From positions 14,337-78,336 of the forward strand of contig CAZAFB010000006.1 in the NCBI GenBank assembly GCA_964484505.1: 64,000 nt of DNA. The letters run 5' to 3'. The notes beneath the pieces were generated by a model. It searched no databases and was not told the DNA's origin. It worked only from the letters and a program-made list of their open reading frames with translations. This document shows, in pieces, positions 5,918 to 48,460 of this stretch. Each line of letters begins with the position of its first letter. Position 1 is the stretch's first letter. Made by a program: the position numbers and the translations under genes. This stretch comes from an uncultured Bdellovibrionales bacterium (GTDB taxonomy: Bacteria; Patescibacteriota; Minisyncoccia; Moranbacterales; GWC2-37-73).

Positions 5918-5940
5918 AACAACCCATGCTTATAAAAAAT

Positions 5941-6535: not shown

Positions 6536-6557
6536 CACACCTTCAGGAAGTCACTAC

Positions 6558-6593: not shown

Positions 6594-6645
6594 GTCAAGA
6601 TAAAATATTTTATGAACAAAAAAAATATATACTGAGAACAATAAT

Positions 6646-10327: not shown

Positions 10328-10328
10328 T

Positions 10329-13148: not shown

Positions 13149-13155
13149 AATATGT

Positions 13156-30709: not shown

Positions 30710-32401
30710 CTACTTTCTCATCTTTTCCGTAACCCAGAATTCCCCAAAATATTTTTTGATCAAAATACGCGTCTGAGAATCGATTGCCGGCAGCGCGCCC
30801 AAAGTCGGCGCAATTAGCGGCGTCAAAAACCACTGCAGAAACATATAGATGTAACGTTTGCGGGAATATTTGGCCGGACGTGGCGGAAGCAGCATAAAAC
30901 TCAAAAACATAGATGCCACAAGACCGCCCATAGCAAGCATCATGAGATAGCGAGTCACAAAAGGCAAATTATGGGCCAAAACGCTTTCATTGAAAGCAGG
31001 ACCCCCGATGAGCAACGGTAACCATCCAAGCAACGCCAGGATCAAGGCTGAAGTAGCCCAAGAATGATGTCCTTCCAGCATTTCAAAAGCGACTCCCAAT
31101 TTCTTACGCAGAGACACCTTTTTATCAGGCCAAATGGCACGCATAATTATCGGAAAATTTTCCACCCCATACGCCCAGCGCCTCTTTTGTTTATATTGAT
31201 TTTTGATAGTTTTCCAATAAGTCGGCGCCAATACCGCATCCAGAGAAATCGGCAAATAGATCGGCTTTACTTGGTAATCTCCATGATAATATGCAAAACA
31301 TTTCCAATAGATGATAGAATCTTCACTTATCATGTTCACCGGCCAGAAATTTACATTCACCAAGGTATCGAAAGGCTCGCTATGCGAAGAGAAAGTGACC
31401 ATTTCGCTGCGAGTACTTTGATACATGTGCCAAAAAGAAGAGCTGGTCACGATTACGCGCACAAAAGCGTTCGTGTCCCAAAGATTATTGTGATACATTG
31501 GCAGCGGCTGGTAGGAACGCTGCAGACGCTTTGGATCTGTTATATAAGCATAGGTAAGCGCCGCGAAATATTGGGAGTGGCAAACACTATCGCAATCAAA
31601 ATTAGAAAAAATAACCCTATCGTAAGCTATGTTCCTTTCATCCAAATATATCATCAATTTTTTGGCAGCATACGTAGCATTGGAGGCTTTACATTTCATT
31701 TCCCCTGTAGCCACCTCATGCGTAGTTACCAAAAAATCGCGAAACATGCCATGGAATTTATTTTTAAGATAATTCACTTTTTCCAAACGTTGATCTTCTG
31801 GTTCCCTTTCTTCAGTAGCGAGCAATATAATAATCTGTTGATTAGGAAAGTTGCAATCCGCAATAGCCTGAATTGCCGGCTCAATCACGTCAGCAGGTTC
31901 ATTGGCAGTTGGCAACATCACCACATGAACGATGCTACGCCAATCCCAAATTTGATCCTTTATCTTTTCCAATTTTTCAACCTCACGAGAATAGACACGC
32001 ATTTTGGAAAACTCCTTGTGAATTTTGCGCCGCTCCGAAATAGAAAGTCTCTCCGAAAGCATCTCCCTCATCGACACCATACGCTCACGCAAAATATTAC
32101 GATACACCGTCGGATTACTGATGTTCTGACAACGATCCCACCAATCGATTTTTTTTCCCTCCTGAAACTTGCGGTAAGCTGAAACTGAATAATAGGTAAT
32201 AAAAATTGTGCGACAAATCCAATAAACATCGAAAGCTATAATAAATACAGCTACCCAAATGGGCACTAAGAAGGAAAAAACAAACATGCCAATCAAAGTA
32301 CTCCAGGTCAAAATACCCGGAATCACCTCCAAGCGACGTTGGATAAGATACTGCCTAGGATCTTTGGTTTTCGGATTTGGAAAACTGAATGTCTTGTTCA
32401 T
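30710..32401 (-). CDS. membrane glycosyltransferase, GT2-like
   Basis: N- and C-terminal TM bundles. Central VMLPTANEP...DCDSV region resembles GT2 DxD/QxxRW-type synthases (low confidence). Confidence 0.45.
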   Translation of the reverse strand: MNKTFSFPNPKTKDPRQYLIQRRLEVIPGILTWSTLIGMFVFSFLVPIWVAVFIIAFDVYWICRTIFITYYSVSAYRKFQEGKKIDWWDRCQNISNPTVYRNILRERMVSMREMLSERLSISERRKIHKEFSKMRVYSREVEKLEKIKDQIWDWRSIVHVVMLPTANEPADVIEPAIQAIADCNFPNQQIIILLATEEREPEDQRLEKVNYLKNKFHGMFRDFLVTTHEVATGEMKCKASNATYAAKKLMIYLDERNIAYDRVIFSNFDCDSVCHSQYFAALTYAYITDPKRLQRSYQPLPMYHNNLWDTNAFVRVIVTSSSFWHMYQSTRSEMVTFSSHSEPFDTLVNVNFWPVNMISEDSIIYWKCFAYYHGDYQVKPIYLPISLDAVLAPTYWKTIKNQYKQKRRWAYGVENFPIIMRAIWPDKKVSLRKKLGVAFEMLEGHHSWATSALILALLGWLPLLIGGPAFNESVLAHNLPFVTRYLMMLAMGGLVASMFLSFMLLPPRPAKYSRKRYIYMFLQWFLTPLIAPTLGALPAIDSQTRILIKKYFGEFWVTEKMRK

Positions 32402-33595: not shown

Positions 33596-36055
33596 GTGCT
33601 ATGCTATAATAAAGCAAAGAAATACTCTCAAAGGAACATGGAAAAAATCATTGGCACGCCGAGAGAATTAGAAAGGCAATATACGCCTATAATGGCTCTT
33701 GGCAACGCTTCTCGCAAACCATATATAGAACATTTCTACCATGAACCTGAAAACATTGTTCAGCAACCACTGGGCACGCTTTTCGGTTATTTTGAAGTAC
33801 GTGAATATAGCGAAGAATCGGCTTATGTCGTCAACTTCCTTAATTCCGTACTTAAAAAAGAGTACTTCATCAATCCCAAAAGAACACTCAGCGAAAGCTT
33901 GGATGCGGCACTGCATAAAGTAAACGTGGCACTTTCAGAAATAGCCAAACACGGAAATATCAATTGGCTGGGACACCTAGATGCTGCAATTTGCGTTCTA
34001 GAAAAGAACAATTTGCATTTTTCCGTATCCGGACAAGCCAACATAATTCTTTCACGAAAGGAAACTTTCAATATAATAAGTGACGGCCTCTCCGCGGAAA
34101 CACCCGATCCTCATCCGCTAAAAACATTCCTAAATGTCGCCAGTGGTCGCTTGGAAGCGGAGGATCGTTTGATTATTACTTCCCGGGAGGTTTTTTCCTT
34201 ATTTACCATTGAACAATTAAAGAAAAACAATAACCGTCTGGATAATGAAAAATTTGTGCAATTTCTAAAAACCGCCCTGATCAACCAAGCACAATTAGCC
34301 CATGTTGGAATTGTAATCATTTCAGAGAAGCCATTGCCAAAGAAAACTAAAAGAGCCAAAAACGGAATATCGGTAGAAAAAATGACCAACGTTTTCAGCC
34401 AACAAGCCTTTTCTCCCAAGAGTGGCCGAAAAGAAACCACTATCTCAGAAGAAGAAGTTTCCCTTTCAGAGGAATCTGAATATACCGACTCCAAAACAGG
34501 ACACATCTACGTGCAAGGTCAACAAGAATCTCTGGAGAAAGAAAGCCCGCTCAAAGAAAAAATCTCCATAATTTTGGAAGGTCTGTCTGACTATTTCAGT
34601 CATGCTAAAAACAAGCTCAGACGCAAATTTAAATCATCCTCCAAAAATTTTTACAAATCCACTGTTCCAAGTGAAATAACACCCACTGAAATGCCATCTA
34701 TGCCGACCACCGAAACACCTGACGTTATTTCGGAGAACCCTGCCGTCAAAACCGAAAAAAAACCCAGCCCAAGACAACAAAAAATCACAACGGATATCAA
34801 AGCGACGCAAGAACCAGCAATAGCATCGCCAAAAAAAGAGCTTCTTTCAATGAGCGGGGAGTCTTCCATGGAAAATAGCCAGGACAAGCTGGAGAGGTTC
34901 ATGACTAAGAAAAAACCAGTTTCCCAAGAAAATGCCGGACAAAAATTAGCCAGAACGGCTTTAGACAGAGCGAAAAACGCCCTTAGATTAAGTCTGCATT
35001 CTTCCAAAAAAGCTTTCGATTCGACTCTTGCTGCCAGCAAAAACACTCTTGAGAAAAGCAAAGCCCTAGGCATGAAACGGCCACGAATCAAAATATCCCT
35101 CCTGCCAAGCATATTGAAAATAAAAAATGCTTTCATGGGCCTGACTTCCAAGCAAAGAATGATCAGTCTGATAGCACTAGCAGCTATAATCATTATGCCT
35201 GCAATCTTTTTAAACATTTCCAAGAAAGAACCAGCCCCTCAACAAACACAAACTATTGAAAAGTCTGATCCGAAAGAAATTTTAGCAAATGAAAAAAACA
35301 TCTCTTTTTCACCTTCCCTTTCGGAAATAACCTCCCAACAAAACACCCTTGTTGTATTGCCGACTGAAAATGGAATAGTATTTGTCGCCAAAAACAATCT
35401 GGTCATCAATGGAGAACAACAAACACAACTGTCCATACCAACATCCACTGAAATAACCCATGCAGCTTACATGAAAGATTTGTCTTTGGTTTTTTTGCTT
35501 ACTTCTGACAACAAAATTTTATCTTTCAGCCCCATTACTAAGCAATTCAAGGAAAACAACATTGAATTTCCTTCCGGATTCAAATCAAAAGGTATTGCCA
35601 CCTATTTAACTTACCTATACGCAGCTGATGCCAATAGCAACCAGATATACCGCTATCCGCGCGCTGAAGGAGGCTTTGGCGCCAAAATTGATTGGCTCAA
35701 GGATTCAACCGATTTAAATTCAGTCACCAGTATGACCCTTGACGATAGCGTATTCCTTGCTTTCTCAGACAAACTGCTCAAATTTTTCAAAGGCAAAAAA
35801 GATAGCTTGAGTCTTGAACAATCCTCCACACCCATAGTATTTTCAACTATTTATACCGATACCAAACAATCCGGAATTTATGTTTTGGATAAACAAAATT
35901 CGCGCGTGATCGTTTTTGACAAGACTAGCGGCCAGATCCGCAAACAATATTACGATGAAAATTTTGCTTCCGCTACTTCCCTTGCCGCCAGTGAACAAAA
36001 CAAACAAATATACATTGCCTCTCCTTCAAAAGTTAACTCAATAGCTATTGAATAA
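33596..36055 (+). CDS. large hypothetical protein (819 aa) with central TM segment
   Basis: No confidently recognised motif. The C-terminal region is beta-rich. Confidence 0.4.
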   Translation: MLCYNKAKKYSQRNMEKIIGTPRELERQYTPIMALGNASRKPYIEHFYHEPENIVQQPLGTLFGYFEVREYSEESAYVVNFLNSVLKKEYFINPKRTLSESLDAALHKVNVALSEIAKHGNINWLGHLDAAICVLEKNNLHFSVSGQANIILSRKETFNIISDGLSAETPDPHPLKTFLNVASGRLEAEDRLIITSREVFSLFTIEQLKKNNNRLDNEKFVQFLKTALINQAQLAHVGIVIISEKPLPKKTKRAKNGISVEKMTNVFSQQAFSPKSGRKETTISEEEVSLSEESEYTDSKTGHIYVQGQQESLEKESPLKEKISIILEGLSDYFSHAKNKLRRKFKSSSKNFYKSTVPSEITPTEMPSMPTTETPDVISENPAVKTEKKPSPRQQKITTDIKATQEPAIASPKKELLSMSGESSMENSQDKLERFMTKKKPVSQENAGQKLARTALDRAKNALRLSLHSSKKAFDSTLAASKNTLEKSKALGMKRPRIKISLLPSILKIKNAFMGLTSKQRMISLIALAAIIIMPAIFLNISKKEPAPQQTQTIEKSDPKEILANEKNISFSPSLSEITSQQNTLVVLPTENGIVFVAKNNLVINGEQQTQLSIPTSTEITHAAYMKDLSLVFLLTSDNKILSFSPITKQFKENNIEFPSGFKSKGIATYLTYLYAADANSNQIYRYPRAEGGFGAKIDWLKDSTDLNSVTSMTLDDSVFLAFSDKLLKFFKGKKDSLSLEQSSTPIVFSTIYTDTKQSGIYVLDKQNSRVIVFDKTSGQIRKQYYDENFASATSLAASEQNKQIYIASPSKVNSIAIE

Positions 36056-36158: not shown

Positions 36159-37880
36159 CTACCATCCTCCACCTCCACCTCCACCTCCACCTCCGCCAGC
36201 TCCCCCTCCACCTCCAGATCCTGAAGGAGCAGAAGTGTTGGCTGCAATCGCCGATGACAAACTTTCCATGGAGGAAGAAAAATTGTCCGCATCGAATGTC
36301 CCGGCACTGCTCACGTACCAAACAGGGGCATGCGTTGCTAAATATTCCTCACCATAAATTTCCCGCATCCGTTTAATCCAAATACCAGTAATACCGAAAA
36401 TAATTGCATAAGGCAGAAACTTTTCAAAGATATTTTCTTTTTCATAAAAAGGCGCTCTGTCTTTATCCACAGTTTCCATGAACAACTTGAACCCTTTGGC
36501 ATCAACATTGAGTTTGGCACCCCTATTTGTCCTCTTAGGCATAATGAAACTGAACACAAGCACAATCAAGGCGGATAATAGGAAACAAAAACCCCAAATA
36601 GGTTCCTTGCTGAATCCCAAAAAGGCAAGCCAAATACCAACAAAACCGACTATCCTCATCACATTTCCAATATGCATGCCTGATGGCACAATCAAATCTT
36701 TGTCCTTCAGAAGCTTTTCGCCCACCTTCTTTATTTGAGGCAATTTTTTGTAGAAAGAATTTTTTAGTTCCGACAACTTCTTTTTTGAGCTTCCTTCAAA
36801 GACCCCTTGCCAGATCTCTTGCTGCACCTTATTTAATTTGGTTTCTTCGTCCAGCTTGCCCATTTTTTCCAATTCATAATCTTTGGTGTCAAAAAAGAGA
36901 ATCTTTTCATGAGTTTCTCTTATTTTAATCAATCCTTTCGTTGCGAAATTTACTATTTCTGCCGTAACCAATTTGTTGTCAAAAGACCCGTTTTTCATAA
37001 GCATTCCCAACTCCGTAGGAGAAAGATTTTCCGGCGAGCCATATTCGGCAATTATCGTATCTCTAACTTCCGGATCTTTGCCAAAACGGTTCCAGAGATA
37101 AAAACAGGCCACAAAGACAGCTAGCGGCACAAATAAGGAAAAATATTTTCCGTAAGCTTCCCAGAATCCCGGTTTATATTCAATGAAAACACCCTTAGGA
37201 AAAGTTACAGAAACTGTTATGCCTTGTCCCTTAGCCAACATACCTTCAGATTCAATTTCCAACACATTTGATTTGCTCCAGTAATATTTTGCCAGCTCTT
37301 TTCCTTTGTTTCCCAAATCGCCGGCATAGTATTCCACCACACTGTTTTCTTTATTCATTTCCTCTGGAAATAAAATTCGAGCATGGAAATGATCCGTTTC
37401 CAATTCCCAAAAATTGCCGTTGAGATTCCAATACAACTCATCAAATTGCGCATCAGAAAAACGGATCGCGTTTTGCACGACGTAATTTATTTTATATACA
37501 TTTACCCCTTGCGCCATAATATCCGGATCACCTATTTTCCAAGTAACAGTACCGGCATTTTTCGTTTCGCTGAACTTTATCGGATTACCCTTGGCATCAC
37601 TGATACCTAGCAAGCTGACCGGCGTCGCCACTTTCTTGCCAGAAATATTCACCTTTTCCGGCAGAATGCGGAAAATACCATGTTTGCCGACCGCATTGCC
37701 GCAATCAGCAGTGATCGTTTCGGTAATGTTCAGGGAAGAATCTTTGTTTACAGTAATTACACTTTCAAAATCCTTAATATACCAATCGGTCACATTTTCC
37801 CTTGCTCGCACTTTGCCCAACGGCAAAAGCATATTGACCAAGATTACCGCAATGACAATTTTAGTTTTCATAAGATTCAA
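36159..37880 (-). CDS. DUF2207 family membrane protein with C-terminal poly-Gly tail
   Basis: Signal/TM N-terminus, then a beta-rich ectodomain, then TM helices and a tail GSGGGGGAGGGGGGGGGGGW encoded by a (CCACCT)n repeat. Confidence 0.6.
   Translation of the reverse strand: MNLMKTKIVIAVILVNMLLPLGKVRARENVTDWYIKDFESVITVNKDSSLNITETITADCGNAVGKHGIFRILPEKVNISGKKVATPVSLLGISDAKGNPIKFSETKNAGTVTWKIGDPDIMAQGVNVYKINYVVQNAIRFSDAQFDELYWNLNGNFWELETDHFHARILFPEEMNKENSVVEYYAGDLGNKGKELAKYYWSKSNVLEIESEGMLAKGQGITVSVTFPKGVFIEYKPGFWEAYGKYFSLFVPLAVFVACFYLWNRFGKDPEVRDTIIAEYGSPENLSPTELGMLMKNGSFDNKLVTAEIVNFATKGLIKIRETHEKILFFDTKDYELEKMGKLDEETKLNKVQQEIWQGVFEGSSKKKLSELKNSFYKKLPQIKKVGEKLLKDKDLIVPSGMHIGNVMRIVGFVGIWLAFLGFSKEPIWGFCFLLSALIVLVFSFIMPKRTNRGAKLNVDAKGFKLFMETVDKDRAPFYEKENIFEKFLPYAIIFGITGIWIKRMREIYGEEYLATHAPVWYVSSAGTFDADNFSSSMESLSSAIAANTSAPSGSGGGGGAGGGGGGGGGGGW
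36165..36222. repeat. (CCACCT/CCTCCA)n simple-sequence repeat encoding the poly-Gly tail
   Basis: ccacctccacctccacctccacctccgccagctccccctccacctcc. Confidence 0.8.
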
Positions 37881-37953
37881 AAGATATTTAAATTATTCAG
37901 GAATTATGGGCCTGGAATTTATGCAAATGTGCAACTCCTGTTACTATCAAAAA

Positions 37954-38712
37954 TCAATACCTTCCGTTGAAAATTATCTTGCTGCGGAATTTTTCTATTC
38001 CGGCAAATTCTTTTTCAAAAATTTTATTCATCTCCTCAATATCCTTGATAAGTCCGTTGATTTTCATTATCCACACTATTTCCCCGCTGCCGATAATCCC
38101 CTTGATATTTTCCAAGCTCCTCTTGACGGTAAGTGCGGAATAATAAGCGATAGAGGCGGAAACTATGGAGTCGGGGCGGCTAAATTTATATTTCTCCCTC
38201 CCCTCTTCAACAATGGAATGAAGCGCTCTCGTGGTCTTCACATAAATCATGGGGCTATAGAAAGAAATTTCTTCCACTTCCCTCTGCACGGAATTGATAA
38301 GGCAAGAAATTCCTGGAAGCATGACTGAAAAGTTTTGCAGTAAATCATGTAATCCTTCCGAAGTTTTGCATGCTTTTTTATATAAAGGGTGCTTTTTGGT
38401 AAATTTGTCTTTGATTTTTTCCTGCACATCATATTCCTCTGTGTCTTCGAAGTCTATCTCGATTCCTTTTTCTTTCAGGTTCTTTTCGATCATCTGCATC
38501 GTTTGCGCCATTATTTCTCCGACATGTTCAAAAACGATCTCCATATCATTGGAGTCCTTGCCTTCCATCATGCACCGCAATTTGAATTGCCTGTCGTCTT
38601 GATATATTTTGCAATCATCCCTCATCTGCTCGCATCTCTCACAGTTCCGATCGCAGAAATTGAAAGGTAACCACTTCATGAAGAATTTTCGATTCGCTTG
38701 GCTTATTTTCAT
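37954..38712 (-). CDS. hypothetical protein with N-terminal Cys cluster
   Basis: CDRNCERCEQ...C; no recognised family. Confidence 0.4.
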   Translation of the reverse strand: MKISQANRKFFMKWLPFNFCDRNCERCEQMRDDCKIYQDDRQFKLRCMMEGKDSNDMEIVFEHVGEIMAQTMQMIEKNLKEKGIEIDFEDTEEYDVQEKIKDKFTKKHPLYKKACKTSEGLHDLLQNFSVMLPGISCLINSVQREVEEISFYSPMIYVKTTRALHSIVEEGREKYKFSRPDSIVSASIAYYSALTVKRSLENIKGIIGSGEIVWIMKINGLIKDIEEMNKIFEKEFAGIEKFRSKIIFNGRY

Positions 38713-38867
38713 ATCCTGATTTTCCAGTTAAAACTTTAAATAAATGCCTTAAATAACCCTGATAGTATTTTCCCATTTTTTACACGCCCGCGCAAACATG
38801 AAAAATCGCCAGCTCATACGGCCAGCGATTCATTTCAATTCTTGTTTGAAATCCCTTGAGTTTTTTA

Positions 38868-41381
38868 CTAAAACTTCTCAGCTAGTTTGACTCGCTCCAT
38901 GATTTCCCGGTTTACAATACGCGCATCGCGACCATAGGTCAAGCGCGACAATTCCTTGAGATACACCGCCAGCTTTTCGTCTCCCGGTGTTGGCGGATAT
39001 GTCTTCATACTGAACGGCTTGGAAAGTTCATTGTTAAGTAGAACTCTGGCAAAACAATTATAATTATCCACATTGACGATATCTTGCGCGCTGAAAACCG
39101 GAGAAAATTGCTTTTCCAAAAATTCCGCATCTTCCGGACCAACCCGGAATGAACACATTGAGCCGACGTTTCCAAAAACCGCTTTGGAAATTTCCTCACT
39201 GAGTTGACCAATGAACTGATGCGCAATCGTGAGAGACAAGCGATATTTGCGCGCCTCGGAAAGAATTTGCGAAATGGAATCCGTGGTCACATTCTGGAAT
39301 TCGTCGATGTAAAGATAAAAATCTTTTCGCTCATCTTCAGACATATCCACCCTTGAAAGTGCCGCCATCAAAATTTTGCCTACGATCACTAAACCGAGCA
39401 AATGGCTGTTTATCTCACCAATTTTTCCTTTGGACAAATTTACAATCAGGATCTTACCTTCATCCATGATCTTACGAAAATCAAGCGTGCTCTTTTGCTG
39501 CGCGATAATCGGGCGCATCATGTCATTGGAAATGAAAGTGGTAAGCTTGGAGGTGATATATGGAACCATGTTGGCCAAAGCCGCTTCCCCCCCAGCTTTT
39601 TCCGCTTCTTTGATCCAAAAGTCGCGCACCACCGGATTTTGACATTTGGTCAGTTTCATGCGGCGGAAATCCTCGTCCGCCAATACCTTGGAAATTTCCA
39701 TCAGCGTCGAACCTGATTCTGGGTCTTCCATAATAAGAAGCATGGCGTTACGCACATACTGCTCAAACATCGGCCCACCGGTTGCCTTGAGATCATAAAG
39801 GCGGTCGAAGATGTTGATCATTTCATTAATCACGAAAGTTTTTTCTTCTGGCCGTGAATATTCCAACATGTTCAATCCAAAAGGACGCTCCATGTCTGAA
39901 GGATCAAAATAAATCACGTCTTCGGCGCGCTCTTTGGGCACTGCCGCTAAAACATCCGTGGCAAAATCACCATGCGGATCAATCACGCAAACACCCTTAC
40001 CATTTCGCACATCTTGCTTGGCCATTTCCTTGAGCAGCACAGACTTACCCACACCGGTCTGACCAATCACATACATGTGTCTTCTTCTATCGCCATCCGT
40101 AAGTTTAATGTCAGTCTTAGTACCTCGATAATCATTATGTCCCAGTAAGATACCTTGCTGTGGAATATTAAGTGGTGGCGGAGCGGCACCTGCCTTGAGC
40201 CATTTTATCTTAGGGGTTTCAGTGGTTGAAATAGGAAAATGATAGAGACTGGAAATTTCTTCTGCATTTAAAATCATTGCGTGCTCCTCGTCAAAAGTAC
40301 GGAATATATAATCAAAAGATATCTTTTTTTCCTTGATACGTTTGGCTACTTTGAAATGGTTGGATTGAGCATATTCGAACTGAGCAAACGCATTCTCCAG
40401 ATGGGCTAAAATCTCATCGGCACGATGTTGATTCGCCGCTGAAGCAAGCAACCTTATGTTGACTGAAAAACCGGCCTTGTTCGTCTTACCTTCAATCGCT
40501 TTCACCAATTCTTGCTCTTCGGGCGTAAGTTGGACAGTTTGCGGCGCAAGAGGCTGGTGTTGCTGTCCACCCGATGAGCTTGTCAGAACTTTGAAAGATT
40601 CCTTAGCAATTTCCTTGGTCAGAGAATTGGTGTGCGCATCTTTGAGGCGTTTTCCCTGCTGCATGCGATGCGCAATCATCCTGCCGGAATTGCGCCATTC
40701 CGTCCCTGCCGGACGCAAAATAAGTTGCACGGCAGCTCCCTCCTCCACGGTTTCCAGTTTACTCAAAGCGTTGGAGAGCTCATTGAGCGGATCAATATCC
40801 ATACGCTCGTACGTCTGAATCGGCAGAGCATATTTTTCCTTAAGTTCCAACATTGCCGCAGATGTATACCCTCCTGGGGTAAAGATCGTATAATCGGAAA
40901 CTTTTTCCACCACCGCATGAGGGAAATAGCTGTGCACTTGTTTTTCAACACTTTCACGAAATTTGCGCGGCACGATCAGATAAAAGGAAATTTCTTCACT
41001 ATTGGAAGGATTGGCGATTTCCAAAGCTACGTGCGGATTGTCATAGAGAAAATAGCTGAAAATCGATTTTTTTTCTTTAATATTCGCCAAAGTGGTTAGT
41101 AGTTGTTCCATCGCGCCGATTTCATCCTTCCATGCTTGCGCATTTTGGGTCTGCTGGGAATGATCGCGATTTATTTTTGTCACCTTGACCACTTCGATGT
41201 CCATGTTGAGCGAACGATTTATCTGCGCTCGATAATGGAAAAAACTTCTCAGCACCAAAAGCACACCACTGATTATGGTTATAAATATTGTAGCGCCAGT
41301 AACCGGAACAAGAAATAAATTTAAATCAAACGTTTCCATTTTTGTTTTTCTTAAAAAGCGACTCCAACTTACCAATAGCAC
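38868..41381 (-). CDS. VirB4/TraC-like type IV secretion-family ATPase (AAA_10) with N-terminal TM
   Basis: Walker A VIGQTGVGKS at about residue 450 of 837, followed by VCVIDPHGDF. Walker B LYIDEFQN. Motif RKYRLSLTIAHQ. Confidence 0.55.
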   Translation of the reverse strand: MLLVSWSRFLRKTKMETFDLNLFLVPVTGATIFITIISGVLLVLRSFFHYRAQINRSLNMDIEVVKVTKINRDHSQQTQNAQAWKDEIGAMEQLLTTLANIKEKKSIFSYFLYDNPHVALEIANPSNSEEISFYLIVPRKFRESVEKQVHSYFPHAVVEKVSDYTIFTPGGYTSAAMLELKEKYALPIQTYERMDIDPLNELSNALSKLETVEEGAAVQLILRPAGTEWRNSGRMIAHRMQQGKRLKDAHTNSLTKEIAKESFKVLTSSSGGQQHQPLAPQTVQLTPEEQELVKAIEGKTNKAGFSVNIRLLASAANQHRADEILAHLENAFAQFEYAQSNHFKVAKRIKEKKISFDYIFRTFDEEHAMILNAEEISSLYHFPISTTETPKIKWLKAGAAPPPLNIPQQGILLGHNDYRGTKTDIKLTDGDRRRHMYVIGQTGVGKSVLLKEMAKQDVRNGKGVCVIDPHGDFATDVLAAVPKERAEDVIYFDPSDMERPFGLNMLEYSRPEEKTFVINEMINIFDRLYDLKATGGPMFEQYVRNAMLLIMEDPESGSTLMEISKVLADEDFRRMKLTKCQNPVVRDFWIKEAEKAGGEAALANMVPYITSKLTTFISNDMMRPIIAQQKSTLDFRKIMDEGKILIVNLSKGKIGEINSHLLGLVIVGKILMAALSRVDMSEDERKDFYLYIDEFQNVTTDSISQILSEARKYRLSLTIAHQFIGQLSEEISKAVFGNVGSMCSFRVGPEDAEFLEKQFSPVFSAQDIVNVDNYNCFARVLLNNELSKPFSMKTYPPTPGDEKLAVYLKELSRLTYGRDARIVNREIMERVKLAEKF

Positions 41382-41436
41382 CCAAATGACCCGAATATAA
41401 AACGCCCGATAAGCGCACTAGCCCCTTTTTATTAAT

Positions 41437-41566
41437 CCAGGACTTATGCGTTTGAATTTTCAAAATTTCAGCAAATATTGTTTTTTGCGCACTGCCGGCC
41501 GACCCGAGAGGGAAAGGCAAGCAAAAAATATATATTTGCTTGAAATTTATGCAAACGCATAACTCC
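41437..41566. mobile_element. ~130-bp MITE-like element copy 1 with 11-bp terminal inverted repeats (TTATGCGTTTG...CAAACGCATAA)
   Basis: Over 90% identical to 42508-42637. GC-rich core gcgcactgccggccgacccgagagggaaaggcaagc. Confidence 0.5.
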
Positions 41567-41586
41567 CGTGATCATTGTTCGTTGTT

Positions 41587-42030
41587 TTAGATTTCTTTCA
41601 ACATGCCTTTTTTGACCAGGGCATCATGAAGCTCGTCCGCCATCATCTTGTCATGAAAAGCATCCAGCACATAATTGCTTTCCAAGTGTTTGGCCACATT
41701 TACCGCGTGTGTAATCCCTTTATTTATGGCTATATCCACCAAATGCTGCACTTGCGCCTCGGCGTCTGTTTTGTTCGCAACCTCGTCAGCATCTTGTTTT
41801 ACAGCGGCCACACCCAATGATTGCTGCTGAGTTTGAATTTTGGAAAGAATATTATTATAAGCACCGTCATGTTCAGCCGCCACAGTTTCTTGAGGCGCTT
41901 CTTTTTCCACTGCCACGGGCATTTGTTCAGTCTCATTGCCAGAACTTAAAACATTATCTTTTTTGAGATGCTTTTCCAAATTCAAATCATCTTCACTGAT
42001 CGGCTCTAGATTAGATTTAACTGGTTCCAT
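41587..42030 (-). CDS. hypothetical protein
   Basis: ORF only. Confidence 0.35.
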   Translation of the reverse strand: MEPVKSNLEPISEDDLNLEKHLKKDNVLSSGNETEQMPVAVEKEAPQETVAAEHDGAYNNILSKIQTQQQSLGVAAVKQDADEVANKTDAEAQVQHLVDIAINKGITHAVNVAKHLESNYVLDAFHDKMMADELHDALVKKGMLKEI

Positions 42031-42042
42031 AATATTTTCTAC

Positions 42043-42120
42043 GAATTACGAACAAATACGAATGTACGAAAAAATTCTAATATTGAACTTCGTACTTTCG
42101 CAAAATTCTTACTTCGTAGA
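42043..42120 (-). promoter_or_regulatory. TTCGTA hexamer array upstream of gene 41587-42030
   Basis: Plus strand tacgaattacgaacaaatacgaatgtacgaaaaa...cttcgtactttcg...cttcgtagag. Confidence 0.4.
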
Positions 42121-42154
42121 GATTAACGGTATTATTCGCGTATTAGTATAACAC

Positions 42155-42472
42155 TCATGCCTTAGCCTCCATCATTTCCTTCTTAAATTCATCGATTGTC
42201 TGTTGAATCATGTCTTCATAGTTGGGAATGCGCTGTTTGAAAAATTCCTGCGCTTCTTTCGGATCTATATTATCATTTTCCAGAAATTTTTCATACTCCG
42301 CGCGTCCTTCTTCGCCCAACTTCTCCATAGTTTCCACAAAAATACGTTTTAAGAGAACTTCGGTCATTTTGATGAGCAGCTCATTACGCTTGTCTTCCGG
42401 CAAAGTATCGATACCCATCTCCTTAACCAATTGATCCAAAGCTTGAGCTTGATCCGGCGTTATCTGATTCAT
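42155..42472 (-). CDS. hypothetical protein
   Basis: ORF only. Confidence 0.35.
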   Translation of the reverse strand: MNQITPDQAQALDQLVKEMGIDTLPEDKRNELLIKMTEVLLKRIFVETMEKLGEEGRAEYEKFLENDNIDPKEAQEFFKQRIPNYEDMIQQTIDEFKKEMMEAKA

Positions 42473-42507
42473 AAATTTGTTTTGACTATAAATTATTTTT
42501 TATAAAT

Positions 42508-42637
42508 TTAGGACTTACGCGTTTGAATTTTTTAAATTTCAGCAAATATTATTTTTTGCGCACTGCCGGCCGACCCGAGAGGGAAAGGCAAGCAAAAAAT
42601 ATATATTTGCTTGGAATTTAGGCAAACGTGTGACTCT
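42508..42637. mobile_element. ~130-bp MITE-like element copy 2
   Basis: See copy 1. Located upstream of gene 42155-42472. Confidence 0.5.
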
Positions 42638-42712
42638 TAATTTGTAAAAGATTCACCCACCTTGACTCGCAAGATGACTTATTCATCGATGCAAGGCGGG
42701 TAATTAGTTTAA

Positions 42713-45259
42713 TTATTTACCCCTCTCCGCTGCTATCTTGGAAAGGCGCGCTATATAGTGGCCCATTTTTTCGCTGCCGCCTCCCTGCGGCTTGATAGCC
42801 TCCTTACCCAAAAGATTCTCGAATTTGCCCAACAATTTAGTCATGCGCGTTTTCATACCATATTGATTGATAGTATCTTTATATGAAGCATCCTTGATGG
42901 CTTGCCATTTGCCAAAATCACCTTTAGCAAGTTCTTTTGCCGAGGATTTGGTAATGTCATGAAAGGTATTACTCTTGGCTCCAATTTGCTCCAAAAATCT
43001 GGCATGCATTTCACGATCCGCCGCCAACACTGCAACACGATCAGCATCAGGCCCATGCAAATCAATGACTTGCTTGGGACCGAAATTTTCATCATGCAAA
43101 AACGTACCCCCTGGCGGCGCCACATGTCTGGACGCAGCTTCTTCCACGGCTCTGCCGGCAGCAGCCAAATCGCTCTTTGCCACCTCCATTTCTCCCGCAT
43201 ATGGATTGGCAGCATTAACTTCGTTCTCAAAATAACTGTCGTTAATGGCTTCCAGATTAACTGATGATACGCCAGATTGCGCATGCTCCACGCCTCCCGC
43301 ATGCGCGTGATGCACAATGCCCTTGAAGTCCAATTTATCAATCCTATATAATCCTTTATCGTCAACTGAAATATCAAAATTAGCAGATTTGATATGATTT
43401 AATTTATCAAAATCAATCTTGTTTTCCTCAGCATATTTCAACACCATCTTGTGAGCTTCCGCACCTGGATTTTTTATACCCAATTCTTTTAACTTACCGA
43501 TCAACGACCCTTCGATACTTTTGCCACTTTCCGCCGCCACTTCCAAATGTGTTCCCGCAGCTTTTGCAGCTTCAATAGTCGGCCCACTAACGACCTGCTT
43601 GGCAATTTCTCCTTGATGGGCAAGTTCATTCAGGCCAGCGTTGGCAACTGTTGGTCCTTGAGTTGGCAAATGCTCTGCAAAAGGCGACGGTACCGATTGT
43701 GGTTTAATAAATGAATTCGTAAGCGGAGTTTCCAACTTCGACTCACCAGGACCGAATATTTTTCCAATAAGTTGTCCCTTGGGAATTGCCATCTTTTCGC
43801 CTAAACAATCTGCAGCTGCTGCAGTAGCAGAACATCCCAATATCATTCCGCTGACCATGGCTATGCATTTATTTATATTCGATCTTCTTGTGTGCCTTCT
43901 ATATTTTTCATCAATTTCATCAATCTTGTCGTTCAATTTATCTTGAAGTTTTTCAAAATCAACAGAATTATTTTCTTCCACAGCACCGAAGGCAAATTCG
44001 TTCTTTTCCTTGTAATTTTTCGCTTGATCAAACATATGCGCAATTTTATCTATATGCGCACCACCAACAGAGGCCATCATGAAGGCTCCCCAAATTCTTC
44101 TTGCAGCGATTAAGGCCGTAGCTCCTGTAGCAAATACCGTTCCGGCTATGCCCAACTTTACTTGCCAAGGAAGTTTATTATATTTCTCAGCAATCACTGC
44201 GGATCCGAGTTTGAAACTATCCCAAATATATTTTCCCTTACTTTTTCCTTCTTTCTCTGCAAGGTATGCCATTTTCGCTTCCGTGCGAGCATCATACAAA
44301 CTTAAAAACTCTTTACAATTTACTGTGGTATAAAGCTCCGCAATAGCATCTTTAAGCTCCAATCCATTTTTGCCGCTTTCTTCAAGTTTTTTAACCTCTG
44401 AATTTATATATTCTTTTAAAGAAGTCTTATACGCTGAACGAGCTTCTCCAACCTCCGGACTTTCTTTGTCGCTTCCTAGACTAAAGAACTTTTTTATAGG
44501 TCCCCAGCTTTGTCTGTTCCTAAATTCCAGATCGGCAAAGTCATTTCTGTTCTCTTCAACTTTCTCCAAAAGCGGATTCTTCTTTTTCTCTTCCTTATTA
44601 TCAGCCCCAACAATCTCAGCTTTTTCCTTATTTTTTTCAAATTCTTCGCGATCACGCTTGGTCTGTTCATCCACAGATACTTCTTCAGCATCTACGATGC
44701 CATTTTCCTCCTCCTTCTCCCTATCATCATATTTCTTATATTCCTTATTCCACTCACGCATTGCTGCCAAAATTGCGTCGTTGGATTTCTGCCTATATTC
44801 TTCAACTTGCTCTTTTTCCTCGACAGAAAGGCTATTTATAATTTCCCTCACTTTATCGTTACCAAGCCCCAAGGTTACATCAATGTCAATAAGCGGACCA
44901 CCAGCAGTAAAAGGGCGGGCATTTATTCCTTTAATTATCTCATCTGCAAGATTTGTAAATGGATTTTCCTTTTTCTCAGCTTTCTCTTCTTTAGCAGAAT
45001 CAACCAAACTAATCTCGGGTTCATCTTTTTGAGATAATTCAACTACAGCTTCGGGCGAATTTCCCAAACCGCTATTTCCACCAAAATTCTGCAACGATAA
45101 ACTATCTACCCCATCAACAGACGACGAAACAACCGCAGGTTCATCCGGTTTATTTTCAGAAGCCTTCAGCGCGGCCAATGCGGACTCTCTTCGCGCAGCC
45201 ATCTTTTTTTTAGTTTCCTCCCTTAAAGGAATTTCGCTTATATTGTCAGTCATTTTCAA
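42713..45259 (-). CDS. large hypothetical protein (848 aa) with acidic coiled-coil N-terminus and central TM segments
   Basis: ORF only. Confidence 0.4.
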   Translation of the reverse strand: MKMTDNISEIPLREETKKKMAARRESALAALKASENKPDEPAVVSSSVDGVDSLSLQNFGGNSGLGNSPEAVVELSQKDEPEISLVDSAKEEKAEKKENPFTNLADEIIKGINARPFTAGGPLIDIDVTLGLGNDKVREIINSLSVEEKEQVEEYRQKSNDAILAAMREWNKEYKKYDDREKEEENGIVDAEEVSVDEQTKRDREEFEKNKEKAEIVGADNKEEKKKNPLLEKVEENRNDFADLEFRNRQSWGPIKKFFSLGSDKESPEVGEARSAYKTSLKEYINSEVKKLEESGKNGLELKDAIAELYTTVNCKEFLSLYDARTEAKMAYLAEKEGKSKGKYIWDSFKLGSAVIAEKYNKLPWQVKLGIAGTVFATGATALIAARRIWGAFMMASVGGAHIDKIAHMFDQAKNYKEKNEFAFGAVEENNSVDFEKLQDKLNDKIDEIDEKYRRHTRRSNINKCIAMVSGMILGCSATAAAADCLGEKMAIPKGQLIGKIFGPGESKLETPLTNSFIKPQSVPSPFAEHLPTQGPTVANAGLNELAHQGEIAKQVVSGPTIEAAKAAGTHLEVAAESGKSIEGSLIGKLKELGIKNPGAEAHKMVLKYAEENKIDFDKLNHIKSANFDISVDDKGLYRIDKLDFKGIVHHAHAGGVEHAQSGVSSVNLEAINDSYFENEVNAANPYAGEMEVAKSDLAAAGRAVEEAASRHVAPPGGTFLHDENFGPKQVIDLHGPDADRVAVLAADREMHARFLEQIGAKSNTFHDITKSSAKELAKGDFGKWQAIKDASYKDTINQYGMKTRMTKLLGKFENLLGKEAIKPQGGGSEKMGHYIARLSKIAAERGK

Positions 45260-45287
45260 AATTTACATTTTTCATTTCAAAACATGC

Positions 45288-46577
45288 TCACTTAGCGCCA
45301 ACATTTTTTTCTGCTATAATCTTTTTCAATATTCTCTTAGTCCCTTTTTCAGCAAAAGCGTCGATTGAAACAGTTTGCTCACCCAAAGCAATCTCCTGCG
45401 CTTTATTTGCATAATATTCCCTAATCAGCATAAACGCCTCCGCCCTCATCAACCCGATAATCACTTGCTTTCGAGGAAATTCGAAAGGATATTTTTCCCT
45501 AAGTCCTTCATCATTTTCAAGATCCTCTCTGATTCCTTTGATATAATCCATAAGAAAATTCTCTTGTTCGGCACTCATTTCAAAAATATTTTCCAGGTCA
45601 TTTTCCTGATTTTTTGGCACTATATACGTTTCACCTTCTACGACGACCAATTTATCGAGATTTTTTTCATCATTAACGTTTTCAGCACTGGTAAAAACCT
45701 GATTGTAGTAATCTTCTTCTTCATTAGAAGATTTATCATCATGCTCTTGCTCCAAATATTTAATACAATATTCAAAAAGATCTCTGTAATCAAAAGCATA
45801 ATCAGACTTGCCCACTTCTCCTTTCTTATTAGTGTGTTCTCCTATAACTCCATATGCTTTTTCAAATTGTTCAACGGTCATCTCTTCAATTCCACTTATG
45901 GCCTTTTCTAAAACAAGTCTATTTCCTTCCAAAGCAACGTCTCCATTTGCAGCCGCCTTTTCAATATTGCTATTTTTGTATTCAGAAAATTTTTTATTCA
46001 CTATTCTTTGGATATTTTCCTTATCAGCTTCAGCAAGATCAACCTCGATTCCATCAATCGTGATTTTTTCGCATAAATTCTTCAATAAATTAACACCATA
46101 TTCACCTCCATATTGCTTGACTTCCTGAAGATAATTATCCGCCAAAATCTCTCTGCCGCTCTCGGGCCATTTATCATTTTCACCACTATCAGCAATAGCC
46201 TGGTCAATAGCGATCCTTATTTCCGCAAGAACCTTCCTTTCGGCAAGCTCAAATACTTCTTTCATGCCCATTCCTTCTTTGCCTCCATCAACTTCGACAC
46301 TGCTAGCATCTTCCAATTTTCCATCAACAATTTTACCTTTTTCAATAGATTCTCCAATCGCATCCAGAACTTTTCCTAATTTATTTTCCTCTTTTGGCAC
46401 ATCAAAATCAGCCCCAGCGGCACCCAAACTTTTTGACTTATCTATCTCATATTCTTCATCGGCGTTTTTTCTCATTCTGCTTTTGCCAGTATTTTTTTTA
46501 GTTTTTTCTTTTTTACCTCTCTTTCCTTCAACCGCCCATCTTCCCTCATTACTAAGTTGTGATTTTGCTTTTGCCAT
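45288..46577 (-). CDS. acidic hypothetical protein (429 aa)
   Basis: ORF only. Confidence 0.4.
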   Translation of the reverse strand: MAKAKSQLSNEGRWAVEGKRGKKEKTKKNTGKSRMRKNADEEYEIDKSKSLGAAGADFDVPKEENKLGKVLDAIGESIEKGKIVDGKLEDASSVEVDGGKEGMGMKEVFELAERKVLAEIRIAIDQAIADSGENDKWPESGREILADNYLQEVKQYGGEYGVNLLKNLCEKITIDGIEVDLAEADKENIQRIVNKKFSEYKNSNIEKAAANGDVALEGNRLVLEKAISGIEEMTVEQFEKAYGVIGEHTNKKGEVGKSDYAFDYRDLFEYCIKYLEQEHDDKSSNEEEDYYNQVFTSAENVNDEKNLDKLVVVEGETYIVPKNQENDLENIFEMSAEQENFLMDYIKGIREDLENDEGLREKYPFEFPRKQVIIGLMRAEAFMLIREYYANKAQEIALGEQTVSIDAFAEKGTKRILKKIIAEKNVGAK

Positions 46578-46604
46578 ATAAATTTATTATTCAAACACCA
46601 AATA

Positions 46605-46650
46605 AACCTACTTCGATTCAAAATTTCGTAGATTCATATCGCATTCGTAG
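46605..46650 (+). promoter_or_regulatory. TTCGTA hexamer array in the divergent promoter region
   Basis: tttcgtagattcatatcgcattcgtagtttcgtatcgg. A second array lies at 46793-46832 (attcgtatacttgtatatattcgtaatttgtag). Confidence 0.4.
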
Positions 46651-46843
46651 TTTCGTATCGGCTTGCAATAATTATACCATAAAAAAATTCCATCCGCACA
46701 AAATTTATCCTTGTGCATAACCCCGCCCTTGTGGAATATTGCACAAAAATATGGTAATATCAAAGTATAAAGAAATTACCTGGCATTACGATTTATATAT
46801 TCGTATACTTGTATATATTCGTAATTTGTAGGGAAAAACAAAA

Positions 46844-48460
46844 ATGGAAAACCTAAAAAAAATTGCGCCTTGGATCCTTGCCCTCCTGATCTTTGGTGCT
46901 GCGCTCTTTTTGAGAGCATATGACATCGACAATATCCCTGCCGGACTATATCCTGACGAAGCAGTCAACGGCATCGACGCCCTCAAAGCAAATGCCACCG
47001 AGGATTACAAACTTTTTTATGAAAACAATTACGGCCGTGAGGGATTATTCATAAACCTGCAAGCATTCACCATCAAGATTTTCGGTAACACCATCTTCGG
47101 ACTAAAATTCTGGTCGATTCTTTTCGGCGCTTTGACCGCTTTCGGCGTGTTTCTGCTTGCCAAAGAACTGTTCAAAAGCACCCGTGCCGGACTTATCGCT
47201 TCCTATTTCACTGCCTTCTCATATTGGGCGATCAATTTTTCCCGCATAGGCTTCCGCGCCAACATGGTTCCGTTAATTTTGACTTTCACTTTCTATTTTC
47301 TTTTTAGGGGTTTGCGTACCAAAAAATATAGCGATTTCATTTTCTCCGGTCTCATTTTCGGTCTGGGTGTGCATACCTACATCGCTTTCCGCGTTTCACC
47401 TTTGGTCATGGTAACGCTTTTAGCAGCATTGATCATATCATATGAAAATTTCTTGAAGACCTATTGGCGACACATCCTTGTCTTTACCATAGCAATGATG
47501 ATTACTGCGGCGCCTATGCTTTTAGACTTTTTCTATTTCCATCCGGAACACTATGCTTCCCGTACTGGCGGCATAAGCGTGCTTAATCCCGACGTAAACA
47601 AGGGAAACCTCTTGGGAACTTTGGTTAAAACTTTCGGACTTTCTCTAGCCAAATACAACTTCTGGGGAGACCAGAATTGGCGTCACAACTATCCACCCTA
47701 TCCAATTTTGAACCCACTGGTCGGCATCTCCTTCCTGATCGGACTTATTTATATTATCGTGAAGATTGTACGCCTATTCTGGCTCAGGTTTGTTGAAAAA
47801 ATCCGCGATGAAAAACTCGCCATCTACATTTTCTTGCTTGCCTGGCTAATCGTTTTGCTCATCCCGGAATTTCTAGCCTACGAAGGCAATCCGCACGCCC
47901 TGCGCGCCATCGGCACAATACCTGTTGTATTCATTATTGCCACTATCCCTGTGCTTTGGATTTTGGCCAGGACCAAGGAATACGGCATGGGCTTCAAATC
48001 TTTTGCTGTTGCAATTTTATTGGGATCCTTCATTTTTGTCGGCCTTTTTGATCCTATCAAATATTTTGTCTTTTTCGGCAATAATCCCAACCATTATGCA
48101 TCATTCGAATCAAAGTTCACTTACATGGCAAAGTATCTGATAGCTCTTCCGCCGGAAACGAAAAAATATGTCATTGCCAACGCGGGAGGTAAGGAAATGA
48201 ATGATGAATTACCAGTAACAGCAGAACCGATCAAATATCTTACTGCAGGAAAAGTTCAAAACATCTCTTTTTTGGTGAAAGGAATCGATTCCAGCTGCAA
48301 TTTCCTACCTGAACTAAAAAATCCTTCAGAAGTGATCCTGATGAAATATGACCAAGCAATTGTAAACCAACTGAAATTAAACTATCCGAATTCCTCTGTT
48401 GAAAGAATAGACTATGCGCCCGGCAAGCAATCCGATTTCATCGTAATCCATATTAAGTAA
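46844..48460 (+). CDS. GT-C fold glycosyltransferase, family 39/83-like (ArnT/PMT type)
   Basis: N-terminal TM helix, then YDIDNIPAGLYPDEA (the DE motif of GT-C enzymes), then 10-12 TM helices. Confidence 0.7.
   Translation: MENLKKIAPWILALLIFGAALFLRAYDIDNIPAGLYPDEAVNGIDALKANATEDYKLFYENNYGREGLFINLQAFTIKIFGNTIFGLKFWSILFGALTAFGVFLLAKELFKSTRAGLIASYFTAFSYWAINFSRIGFRANMVPLILTFTFYFLFRGLRTKKYSDFIFSGLIFGLGVHTYIAFRVSPLVMVTLLAALIISYENFLKTYWRHILVFTIAMMITAAPMLLDFFYFHPEHYASRTGGISVLNPDVNKGNLLGTLVKTFGLSLAKYNFWGDQNWRHNYPPYPILNPLVGISFLIGLIYIIVKIVRLFWLRFVEKIRDEKLAIYIFLLAWLIVLLIPEFLAYEGNPHALRAIGTIPVVFIIATIPVLWILARTKEYGMGFKSFAVAILLGSFIFVGLFDPIKYFVFFGNNPNHYASFESKFTYMAKYLIALPPETKKYVIANAGGKEMNDELPVTAEPIKYLTAGKVQNISFLVKGIDSSCNFLPELKNPSEVILMKYDQAIVNQLKLNYPNSSVERIDYAPGKQSDFIVIHIK

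Follow-up and report, generated by a model that had tools for sequence, protein, structure and literature searches.

The stretch of DNA analysed here, hereafter the window, comprises 64,000 nucleotides of contig CAZAFB010000006.1, from a genome record titled as an uncultured Bdellovibrionales bacterium and placed by GTDB in the Moranbacterales of the Patescibacteriota. The names of homologues, the set of tRNA genes and flanking genes including rpsB, tsf, a prfA-like gene and holB mark it as ordinary chromosome of Candidatus Moraniibacteriota, a group of the Parcubacteria/Patescibacteria. It contains a locus of seven co-oriented open reading frames (ORFs) on the minus strand; coordinates below are those of the window unless marked otherwise. 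Counted from its head, the locus encodes an acidic, soluble protein of 429 amino acids (aa) and pI 4.81 that occupies a variable slot four positions upstream of the ATPase gene (g429; 45288-46577), a fast-evolving 848-aa membrane protein (g848; 42713-45259), a 105-aa DUF5663 protein (g105; 42155-42472), an unnamed acidic protein of 147 aa (g147; 41587-42030), an 823-aa ATPase of the type IV coupling protein (T4CP) family (38868-41339), a 252-aa protein with seven cysteines (g252; 37954-38712) and a 573-aa DUF2207 protein (36159-37880). The same genes are called on three independent Joint Genome Institute (JGI) metagenome contigs, on which the ATPase is 100% identical, and the GC content of the module matches that of its flanks. 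A first-pass annotation made from the letters of this DNA had listed the seven ORFs, all of which we find, together with the acidity of g429, the membrane character of g848 (visible as central hydrophobic segments) and the cysteine cluster of g252. It had also called the genes tightly packed; they do share one orientation, but the intergenic gaps from g429 through the DUF2207 gene measure 28, 240, 124, 247, 155 and 73 nt, and a terminator-like hairpin follows the ATPase gene. Altogether, we find that the locus is a five-gene module, g429 through the ATPase gene, built around a coupling-type ATPase, plus two unrelated passenger genes. The initial observation was thus real in that a membrane-anchored ATPase belonging to the realm of type IV secretion stands at the core of the locus, together with uncharacterised partners that are conserved, but it was mis-scoped and partly mislabelled.

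The ATPase frame is open to a GTG at 41381, which accounts for the 837 aa assigned to it initially, but the ATG at 41339 is the start codon in public gene calls and in all homologues, so that the protein has 823 aa. An N-terminal transmembrane helix, already proposed in the first-pass annotation, is borne out both by hydropathy (hydrophobic core at residues 11-29, 41253-41309; Kyte-Doolittle 2.19) and by an AlphaFold2 (AF2) model of the full protein, in which residues 7-44 form one long helix. Because basic residues (RSFFHYRAQINR) come after the transmembrane helix, the rest of the protein is probably cytoplasmic. It consists of a DUF8128 domain (PF26449; residues 45-395; 40155-41207), taken from precomputed Pfam annotation, and a coupling-protein-type nucleotide-binding domain (residues 396-823; 38871-40154) with the Walker A motif GQTGVGKS (40041-40064) and the Walker B motif YLYIDEFQ (39294-39317). 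The Walker A lysine K432, the Walker B residues D679 and E680, and also K698 and Q708 are invariant in an alignment of 34 family members that share 30-48% identity and, since these catalytic residues are unchanged throughout, the enzyme is presumably active.

Four Pfam families match the ATPase above their gathering cut-offs: DUF87 (E 3.4e-10), TrwB_AAD_bind (E 4e-8; 33.0 bits, the cut-off being 20.5), T4SS-DNA_transf (E 1.7e-6; 27.6 against 20.1) and TraG-D_C (E 3.4e-5; 24.2 against 22). The DUF87 match reflects the core common to the superfamily, and the other three are T4CP families. In agreement with these matches, the top NCBIfam models are TraD and the CD1115 VirD4-like model, and the sole VirB4-named NCBIfam match is weak and confined to the Walker A region. 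Among PDB sequences, TrwB (E 2.7e-6, with the family profile) and DotL (E 1.8e-4) are the only ones to match at E<0.001, the remaining matches being weak (E 0.1-0.7) and located in the Walker A region. The initial label of a VirB4/TraC-like AAA_10 ATPase does not hold, as neither AAA_10 nor CagE_TrbE_VirB matches the whole protein at E<=0.1 or its N-terminal half at E<=10. Traits of HerA or FtsK are likewise missing: there is no match to FtsK_SpoIIIE, no HerA HAS-barrel and no neighbouring NurA gene.

The relatives of the ATPase on plasmids lead in the same direction. When 72,556 plasmids were searched with tblastn, homologues spanning residues ~100-820 came up on 590 records, with hosts in Bacillus (303) and Streptomyces (84) and also in Staphylococcus, Clostridium, haloarchaea and Sulfolobus. 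On the Bacillus subtilis plasmid NZ_CP032854, the homologue, a DUF87-type coupling ATPase (WP_121549396), heads a conjugation operon in which a Replic_Relax relaxase gene stands directly after it and is followed by TcpC and TcpE, while a separate AAA_10 VirB4 (E 3e-116) is encoded on the same plasmid. In hhalign comparisons, the family profile of the Moraniibacteriota ATPase aligns with the relaxase-adjacent protein over 662 columns with a probability of 100% and E 4.6e-56, and with the VirB4 of the same plasmid with a probability of 3.4% and E 0.013. WP_121549396 is thus homologous to the ATPase in its N-terminal domain as well as in its ATPase domain, although the two are only ~24% identical and the module in this member of the candidate phyla radiation (CPR) has none of the relaxase, TcpC, TcpE and AAA_10 VirB4 genes of the plasmid operon. 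No homologues of g147, DUF5663 or g848 occur in the plasmid loci that we examined. On the Haloterrigena plasmid pHTS138 (L187, 7758-12051), the DUF8128-like and ATPase parts are two adjacent, overlapping ORFs, and this split pair adjoins a pilin gene and the gene for a large conjugal transfer protein. Because of the sequence matches and the position of the plasmid homologue, we assign the ATPase by homology to the TrwB/VirD4/TraD family of T4CPs and not to VirB4; we rejected the AAA_10/VirB4 assignment on the basis of the Pfam, PDB sequence and hhalign results.

Several other assignments were considered for the ATPase and set aside. A role of the module in defence was rejected, PADLOC having returned generic HerA and mad8 ATPase matches for the ATPase only and none for its partners. 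The family model phrog_5156 matches the ATPase essentially over its full length (E 1.3e-89), which implies that a phage- or prophage-derived family includes the same architecture; that model has no assigned function, however, and the 19 matches to IMG/VR viral contigs cover mainly the ATPase domain alone, the exception being L165 (residues 90-766), so that a phage origin was not adopted. Fusions were equally uninformative as to function, since family members of 1400-2006 aa add only low-complexity C-terminal tails that contain no Pfam domain. Five such homologues of 1422-2006 aa (P0166, P0176, P0184, P0194 and P0168) carry C-terminal extensions of 600-1200 aa; most of these are rich in Pro and Ala with recurring PPPIGAPPV(D/E)L, ITDITGG and (I/Y)HFVDP motifs, and that of P0168 is rich in Ser and Gln. 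The family as a whole is large, with 6113 representatives of 50% clusters at E<=1e-30 in a whole-library search.

While the VirB4 idea fails by sequence, it has a counterpart in the predicted fold of the N-terminal domain. In Foldseek comparisons, the full-length AF2 model matches TrwB with template-modelling (TM) scores of 0.62-0.64 over ~420 columns (root-mean-square deviation 5-7 Å), and HerA and Cag-beta with TM-scores of ~0.5 each. Because the best full-length E-values (5e-15, ~900 columns) belonged to TrwK/VirB4 chains, DUF8128 (residues 45-395) was modelled alone, giving a prediction with a pLDDT of 77.9 and a pTM of 0.77. Each of the 14 best PDB matches of this model is a TrwK/VirB4 structure (E 1.1e-6 to 1.6e-5; TMq 0.41-0.48); the first match to anything else, at E 6.8e-3, is to an unrelated fold. 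DUF8128 therefore has a predicted fold that resembles the VirB4 N-terminal domain to a moderate degree. The ATPase also recalls VirB4 proteins such as TrwK, TraC and TrbE in its two-domain proportions of ~800 aa (with the N-terminal fold matching at Foldseek E ~1e-6), and its membrane tether calls to mind fusions of VirB3 with VirB4, but the linkage of VirB4 to VirB3, VirB6 and VirB8 is missing: Pfam, NCBIfam and PDB sequence searches found no homologue of VirB3, VirB6 or VirB8 near the ATPase gene. Within the nucleotide-binding domain, an all-alpha stretch is predicted between core strands at about residues 489-612 (pLDDT 49-72), and the alignment to the TrwB_AAD_bind profile spans it; this putative helical insertion would lie at the place of the all-alpha domain of T4CPs. 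Like TrwB of R388, VirD4, TraD, DotL and Cag-beta, the ATPase thus combines an N-terminal membrane anchor with a P-loop domain of the FtsK/HerA superfamily. It differs from canonical T4CPs, which usually have two transmembrane helices, in having one, and in carrying the ~350-aa DUF8128 between anchor and ATPase domain.

For the analysis of gene neighbourhoods, we compared 80 loci from Moraniibacteriota species-level genomes, in which the ATPase is 58-92% identical and among the slowest-evolving genes of the region, with 80 metagenome loci at 40-61% ATPase identity, and called and clustered their ORFs. The order in Moraniibacteriota is holB-ftsQ-PMT-PMT, divergently oriented, followed by the variable slot, the g848 family, DUF5663, the g147 family and the ATPase; downstream of the ATPase come 0-2 variable genes and then g819p (convergent), g201, g563 and GT4. 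Of the positions upstream of the ATPase, -1 is taken by the g147 family in 91 loci, -2 by DUF5663 in 47 loci and -3 by a gene of the g848 family in 41. A hidden Markov model (HMM) search recovers g147 from 69 of the genome loci and 45 of the metagenome loci; DUF5663 is present in 53 of the 80 genome loci, and the g848 family forms a cluster of 55 members. Thus, four of the six neighbours of the ATPase in the window are conserved with it (the g147 family, DUF5663, the g848 family and, as a very diverged slot family, g429), and g252 and the DUF2207 gene are not. These data show that the module is chromosomal and vertically inherited. A second ATPase subfamily, of ~920 aa, lacks g147 and is located after adk-map; together with the g147-associated subfamily of ~820 aa, it agrees with the published copy number of approximately two per genome.

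The best conserved partner, g147, begins with a region that bears the motif LEPI-E-x-DL-x-L; an acidic linker of variable sequence joins it to a helical C-terminal domain, in which D123 and H126 (LDxFHD) are invariant. A profile search collected 459 homologues, all of them unnamed and none with a Pfam match, and sequence and profile searches for PDB relatives of g147, the g848 family, g819p and g252 returned low-complexity noise only. The second small partner, g105, matches Pfam DUF5663 (PF18908) with 45.6 bits, where 23.7 would suffice (E 1.1e-11), in agreement with precomputed annotation, and has no transmembrane segment. Both are acidic, with pI values of 4.5 (g105) and 4.8 (g147). In three loci (L093, L106 and L154), the order is permuted to ATPase, large protein, DUF5663-like protein and small ORF; the Pfam support for DUF5663 in them is sub-threshold, and the last ORF is g147-like by HMM in L106 only. 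Two downstream neighbours were noted in passing. The 819-aa product of g819p (33596-36055, plus strand) has one transmembrane segment and no family match, and its gene is the convergent neighbour of the ATPase gene in 39 of the 80 genomes; the product of g563 (30710-32401, minus strand) has four transmembrane segments and no family match and is highly conserved (75-90% identical). Many records, among them L001, L003 and L012, are titled 'uncultured Bdellovibrionales' or Pseudobdellovibrionaceae, and L070 is titled 'Bathyarchaeia archaeon', yet all have a Moraniibacteriota-type locus, so that these titles are probably mislabels or products of mis-binning.

The 3' end of the module is likely marked by the terminator-like hairpin, which lies 37 nt past the ATPase stop codon and consists of an 11-bp stem followed by a T-run (38803-38831). 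Its folding energy is -17.2 kcal/mol (z -2.28), a value reached by 6 of 200 shuffled sequences. A promoter scan was uninformative, returning 32 sites against 24 +/- 6 expected from shuffling. Beyond the hairpin lie the two genes that the first-pass annotation had joined to the rest as parts of one seven-gene apparatus. Neither g252 nor the DUF2207 gene has a homologue in any of the 160 related loci. The ten homologues of g252 in a set of 5.8 billion proteins adjoin restriction-modification or ABC2/SecDF genes and never an ATPase gene of this family or a DUF2207 gene. Because of this absence, the unrelated contexts of g252 and the hairpin, we place both genes outside the system, as unrelated neighbours of the module. 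The invariant cysteines of g252 are C20-x3-C24-x2-C27-x6-C34 and C47; the Cx3Cx2C spacing in its N-terminal PFNFCDRxCxRC...C...C segment is like that of a radical-SAM cluster, and the protein has no radical-SAM or other Pfam match. The other passenger is the membrane protein described initially: it has matches to the N-terminal DUF2207 domain (PF09972; 66.3 bits against 24.4, E 5e-18) and to DUF2207_C (PF20990; 101.3 against 33, E 9e-29), a signal-like N-terminus, three further transmembrane segments and a Gly-rich C-terminal tail. In L001, the closest relative, a 210-aa ORF takes the position of the DUF2207 gene. A 62-nt segment inside the DUF2207 gene, towards its 3' end (36243-36304), is 84% identical to the intergenic segment 13440-13501 of L001, a relative without this gene; the segment in L001 may be what a deletion left behind.

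At the opposite end of the module, two genes evolve far faster than the rest. The identity to L001 is 92% for the ATPase, 89% for DUF5663, 82% for g147, 92% for PMT609 and 90% for g563, and it is 44% for g848. The slot at position -4 holds, in L001, a 495-aa ORF that cannot be aligned to g429 and, across 50 genomes, 56 unclustered ORFs. Because g429 nevertheless resembles, by BLASTP, the protein that fills this slot in L054 (E 2e-8, 29% identity over 199 aa), the slot holds a very rapidly diverging family and not random insertions. g429 has no signal peptide, no transmembrane segment and no match in Pfam, NCBIfam, PHROG or PADLOC, and a jackhmmer search started from it recruited nothing. g848 lacks a signal peptide as well; it has a charged N-terminal half, about two hydrophobic or amphipathic segments (~365-400 and ~465-483) and a variable C-terminal half, and its family retains a conserved central region in an alignment with a mean identity of 17%. 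Two public contigs end inside g848. A C-terminal helix motif, [WY]xx[RK][IVLM], which g848 itself carries, occurs in 27 of 51 g848-family members and in 42 of 502 background ORFs. We rejected a C-terminal signal common to slot proteins and g429, as an HMM of the helix joins clusters 33, 56, 116 and 119 and leaves g429 out. Several g848-family proteins (L001:6565-9015 and members in L004, L010, L012, L014 and L018) end in K(L/I)AA, like the LAA of the ssrA tag; the copy in the window does not.

Comparison with the strain L182, in which the ATPase is identical, places the variation of these genes in a wider frame. Single-nucleotide polymorphisms (SNPs) number 19 per kb in the glycosyltransferase gene PMT538 (25 synonymous to 3 nonsynonymous codon changes), 12 per kb in g429 (8:7), 20 per kb in g848 (19:28, plus one indel) and 13 per kb in g105 (3:1); there are 1-2 per kb in g252 and PMT609 and none in the ATPase gene, the DUF2207 gene and ftsQ. 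These four variable genes form a SNP hot spot at 42155-48460 with 11-20 SNPs per kb, and its surroundings are identical or nearly so. The mostly synonymous changes in PMT538 suggest an imported recombination tract.

Across the 64-kb window, a Pfam scan of 57 larger ORFs found no relaxase, VirB4, VirB6, VirB8 or pilin, in line with the first-pass annotation, which had recognised neither pilin nor relaxase at the locus; the conserved flanks of the related loci contain none of these families either, and the partner proteins carry no VirB6-, VirB8- or pilin-like sequence signal. Unlike canonical T4CPs, the ATPase is chromosomal, vertically inherited and near-universal in its phylum, with no relaxase, VirB4 or channel gene nearby. 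That VirD4-type genes exist away from virB4 is already known: 5713 VirD4-type homologues were reported in 2918 of 3035 Patescibacteria genomes (96%), with 148 of them near virB4, and exaptation was suggested (Quinonero-Coronel et al. 2025, PMC12102498). By description, the ATPase fits these scattered homologues, being VirD4-type, far from virB4 and present at about two copies per genome. The same study found VirB4 in 80% of Patescibacteria genomes and described the group's type IV secretion system (T4SS) as a different cluster, with VirB4, TrsD, VirB3 and VirB6, often near dnaA (PMC12102498). In Southlakia, a T4SS without a recognisable coupling protein or relaxase has been described (Wang et al. 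2023, PMC10633639). None of the papers searched describes the conserved partners of the ATPase (g147, DUF5663 and g848), the predicted likeness of DUF8128 to VirB4, the kinship with ATPases encoded beside relaxase genes on plasmids or the hypervariable companions; neither DUF8128 nor DUF5663 is mentioned in the full-text literature that we searched.

Coupling proteins such as TrwB and VirD4 are hexameric motors and receptors, and some work with small accessory proteins, IcmS, IcmW and LvgA on DotL and CagZ on Cag-beta, that act as adaptors, chaperones or regulators. The small acidic partners of the module recall these proteins. With moderate confidence, we favour a model whereby the ATPase is a domesticated orphan T4CP motor that has two small acidic, adaptor-like partners and acts on the hypervariable upstream proteins. 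In this model, the ancestors or cousins of the ATPase would be relaxase-adjacent coupling proteins of Gram-positive and archaeal conjugative plasmids, one of which would have become fixed in the Patescibacteria chromosome without its relaxase and acquired dedicated partners. The ATPase would serve as a membrane-anchored hexameric motor and substrate receptor, and g147 and the DUF5663 protein as its adaptors, chaperones or regulators, as IcmS and IcmW do for DotL and CagZ does for Cag-beta. Its clients may be the fast-evolving large upstream proteins, which lack a signal peptide, so that the substrate would be protein rather than DNA, and export could proceed via the Patescibacteria T4SS encoded elsewhere or via the g848-type membrane partner.

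Several observations weigh against this model. The proposed adaptor and client roles are suggested by adjacency, size, charge and evolutionary rate only, and no channel component is encoded in the window. Outside Moraniibacteriota, the linkage of DUF5663 is weak, with sub-threshold Pfam scores only. The structural comparisons start from a full-length model of moderate quality (pLDDT 68.6, pTM 0.49) in which the all-alpha insertion is poorly resolved, and the match of DUF8128 to VirB4 has modest TM-scores (0.41-0.48) between a predicted and a solved structure. Because the hot spot that separates the window from L182 also covers PMT538, where synonymous changes predominate, a recombination tract and not selection on the module accounts for part of the hypervariability. 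Finally, the T4CP homologue of Southlakia epibionticum was reported to be non-essential whereas the T4SS genes are essential (PMC12102498), which argues against an obligatory partnership with the T4SS, although that homologue may belong to another subfamily. The substrate is a further point, for canonical T4CPs translocate single-stranded DNA and the plasmid homologue adjoins a relaxase, so that DNA is a plausible substrate of the ATPase as well.

This last point carries over into the main rival, which we regard as fairly unlikely: that the ATPase is a stand-alone DNA translocase of the FtsK/HerA or ComFA/CedB kind, engaged in uptake, nucleotide scavenging or segregation, with the small partners as regulators and the variable genes as unrelated cargo of a hot spot. 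Besides the DNA transport typical of T4CPs and the relaxase linkage of the plasmid homologue, it draws on the DUF87/HerA central domain, which gives the best single Pfam E-value, on the structural match to HerA and weak NCBIfam matches to the CedD and CedB DNA-import ATPases, on a distribution (96% of genomes) wider than the 80% of VirB4, and on the housekeeping context of the second subfamily after adk-map and of the window copy near ftsQ and holB. Set against these are the missing FtsK_SpoIIIE match, HAS-barrel and NurA partner and a fold match to HerA (TM-score ~0.5) that is weaker than that to TrwB. The small partners, because they are acidic, are unlikely to bind DNA, and the co-orientation of the module with genes for hypervariable large proteins would be left unexplained.

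A far-reaching extension of the domesticated-motor model, quite unlikely in our view, is a phylum-wide, relaxase-independent export route in which the ATPase with its VirB4-like N-terminal domain, assisted by g147 and DUF5663 adaptors, would drive the hypervariable large proteins out of the cell or into a host membrane, with the C-terminal helices perhaps serving for their recognition. Very unlikely, in turn, is the arrangement envisaged in the first-pass annotation, in which the seven genes encode a self-contained, highly divergent machine of a type-IV-like kind, be it for secretion, for DNA uptake or as a surface apparatus, with a VirB4-like engine and diverged equivalents of VirB6, VirB8 and pilin. 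The predicted fold of DUF8128 and the best full-length Foldseek E-values, which are to TrwK/VirB4, speak for it, as do the conserved position of a membrane protein, g848, and the finding that Patescibacteria T4SS components diverge beyond HMM detection (PMC12102498). However, the ATPase has no AAA_10 or CagE_TrbE_VirB signal and is homologous along its entire length to a plasmid-encoded ATPase that is distinct from the bona fide AAA_10 VirB4 of the same plasmid; the roughly two hydrophobic segments of g848 are not the polytopic pattern of VirB6; the module lacks a conserved ORF for a small, hydrophobic protein of pilin-like character; g252 and the DUF2207 gene are not conserved with it; and the T4SS described for Patescibacteria is a different cluster.

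It is highly improbable that the ATPase is a leftover of a decayed conjugative or other mobile element that integrated here and has no function in the host: the abundance of homologues on plasmids, the full-length match to phrog_5156, the C-terminal-domain homologues on IMG/VR viral contigs and the variable upstream content would all fit such an origin, but dozens of species-level genomes have the ATPase gene at the same chromosomal position and between the same flanks, and the gene evolves more slowly than most others of the region, with invariant catalytic residues and no differences among the strain-level copies compared, has no flanking integrase, relaxase gene or repeats and matches its flanks in GC content. 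That all seven genes, with the Cys-motif protein and the DUF2207 protein included, make up one functional operon has hardly any chance of being right, since co-orientation, contiguity and the membrane nature of the DUF2207 protein are set against the lack of g252 and DUF2207 homologues in the 160 related loci, the hairpin between the ATPase gene and g252, the unrelated contexts of g252 homologues and the different, 210-aa ORF of L001.

Elsewhere in the window, the segment 53746-62475 is probably a defence island or integrated element. It encodes an XerC/D-type integrase (53746-54606), a fusion of RadC-JAB with a C5 cytosine methylase (55819-57483), an HpaII-type restriction endonuclease (57467-58555), an OLD-family AAA_15+TOPRIM nuclease (58969-60666) and HD-domain proteins, and between 54 and 62 kb the GC skew reverses its sign while the GC content drops to 0.335-0.377. 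Another islet, for defence or of toxin type, could be present on the minus strand at 517-7701, with genes for a UvrD-like helicase (517-2424), a SIR2-domain protein (3279-4520) and a Fic/DOC protein (6646-7701), between which lies a pseudouridine synthase gene. A polysaccharide cluster at 9407-13995 encodes a UDP-glucose dehydrogenase, a 939-aa GT2 protein fused to a beta-helix/NosD region and a protein of the alginate-lyase-2 family.

Patescibacteria make up a large share of bacterial diversity and depend on hosts, and their interaction with these hosts is largely unexplained. In this setting, the partner set, the predicted fold of DUF8128, the plasmid cousins of the ATPase and the fast-evolving genes beside it make it possible to propose, in testable form, that a scattered VirD4-type gene encodes a domesticated coupling protein with adaptors and variable clients. 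The joining of a VirB4-like N-terminal domain to a T4CP-like ATPase domain in one protein, as predicted here, bears on how VirB4 and VirD4 diverged. If the phylum-wide export route should prove true, it would represent an unrecognised pathway of effector delivery underpinning the episymbiosis of these bacteria.

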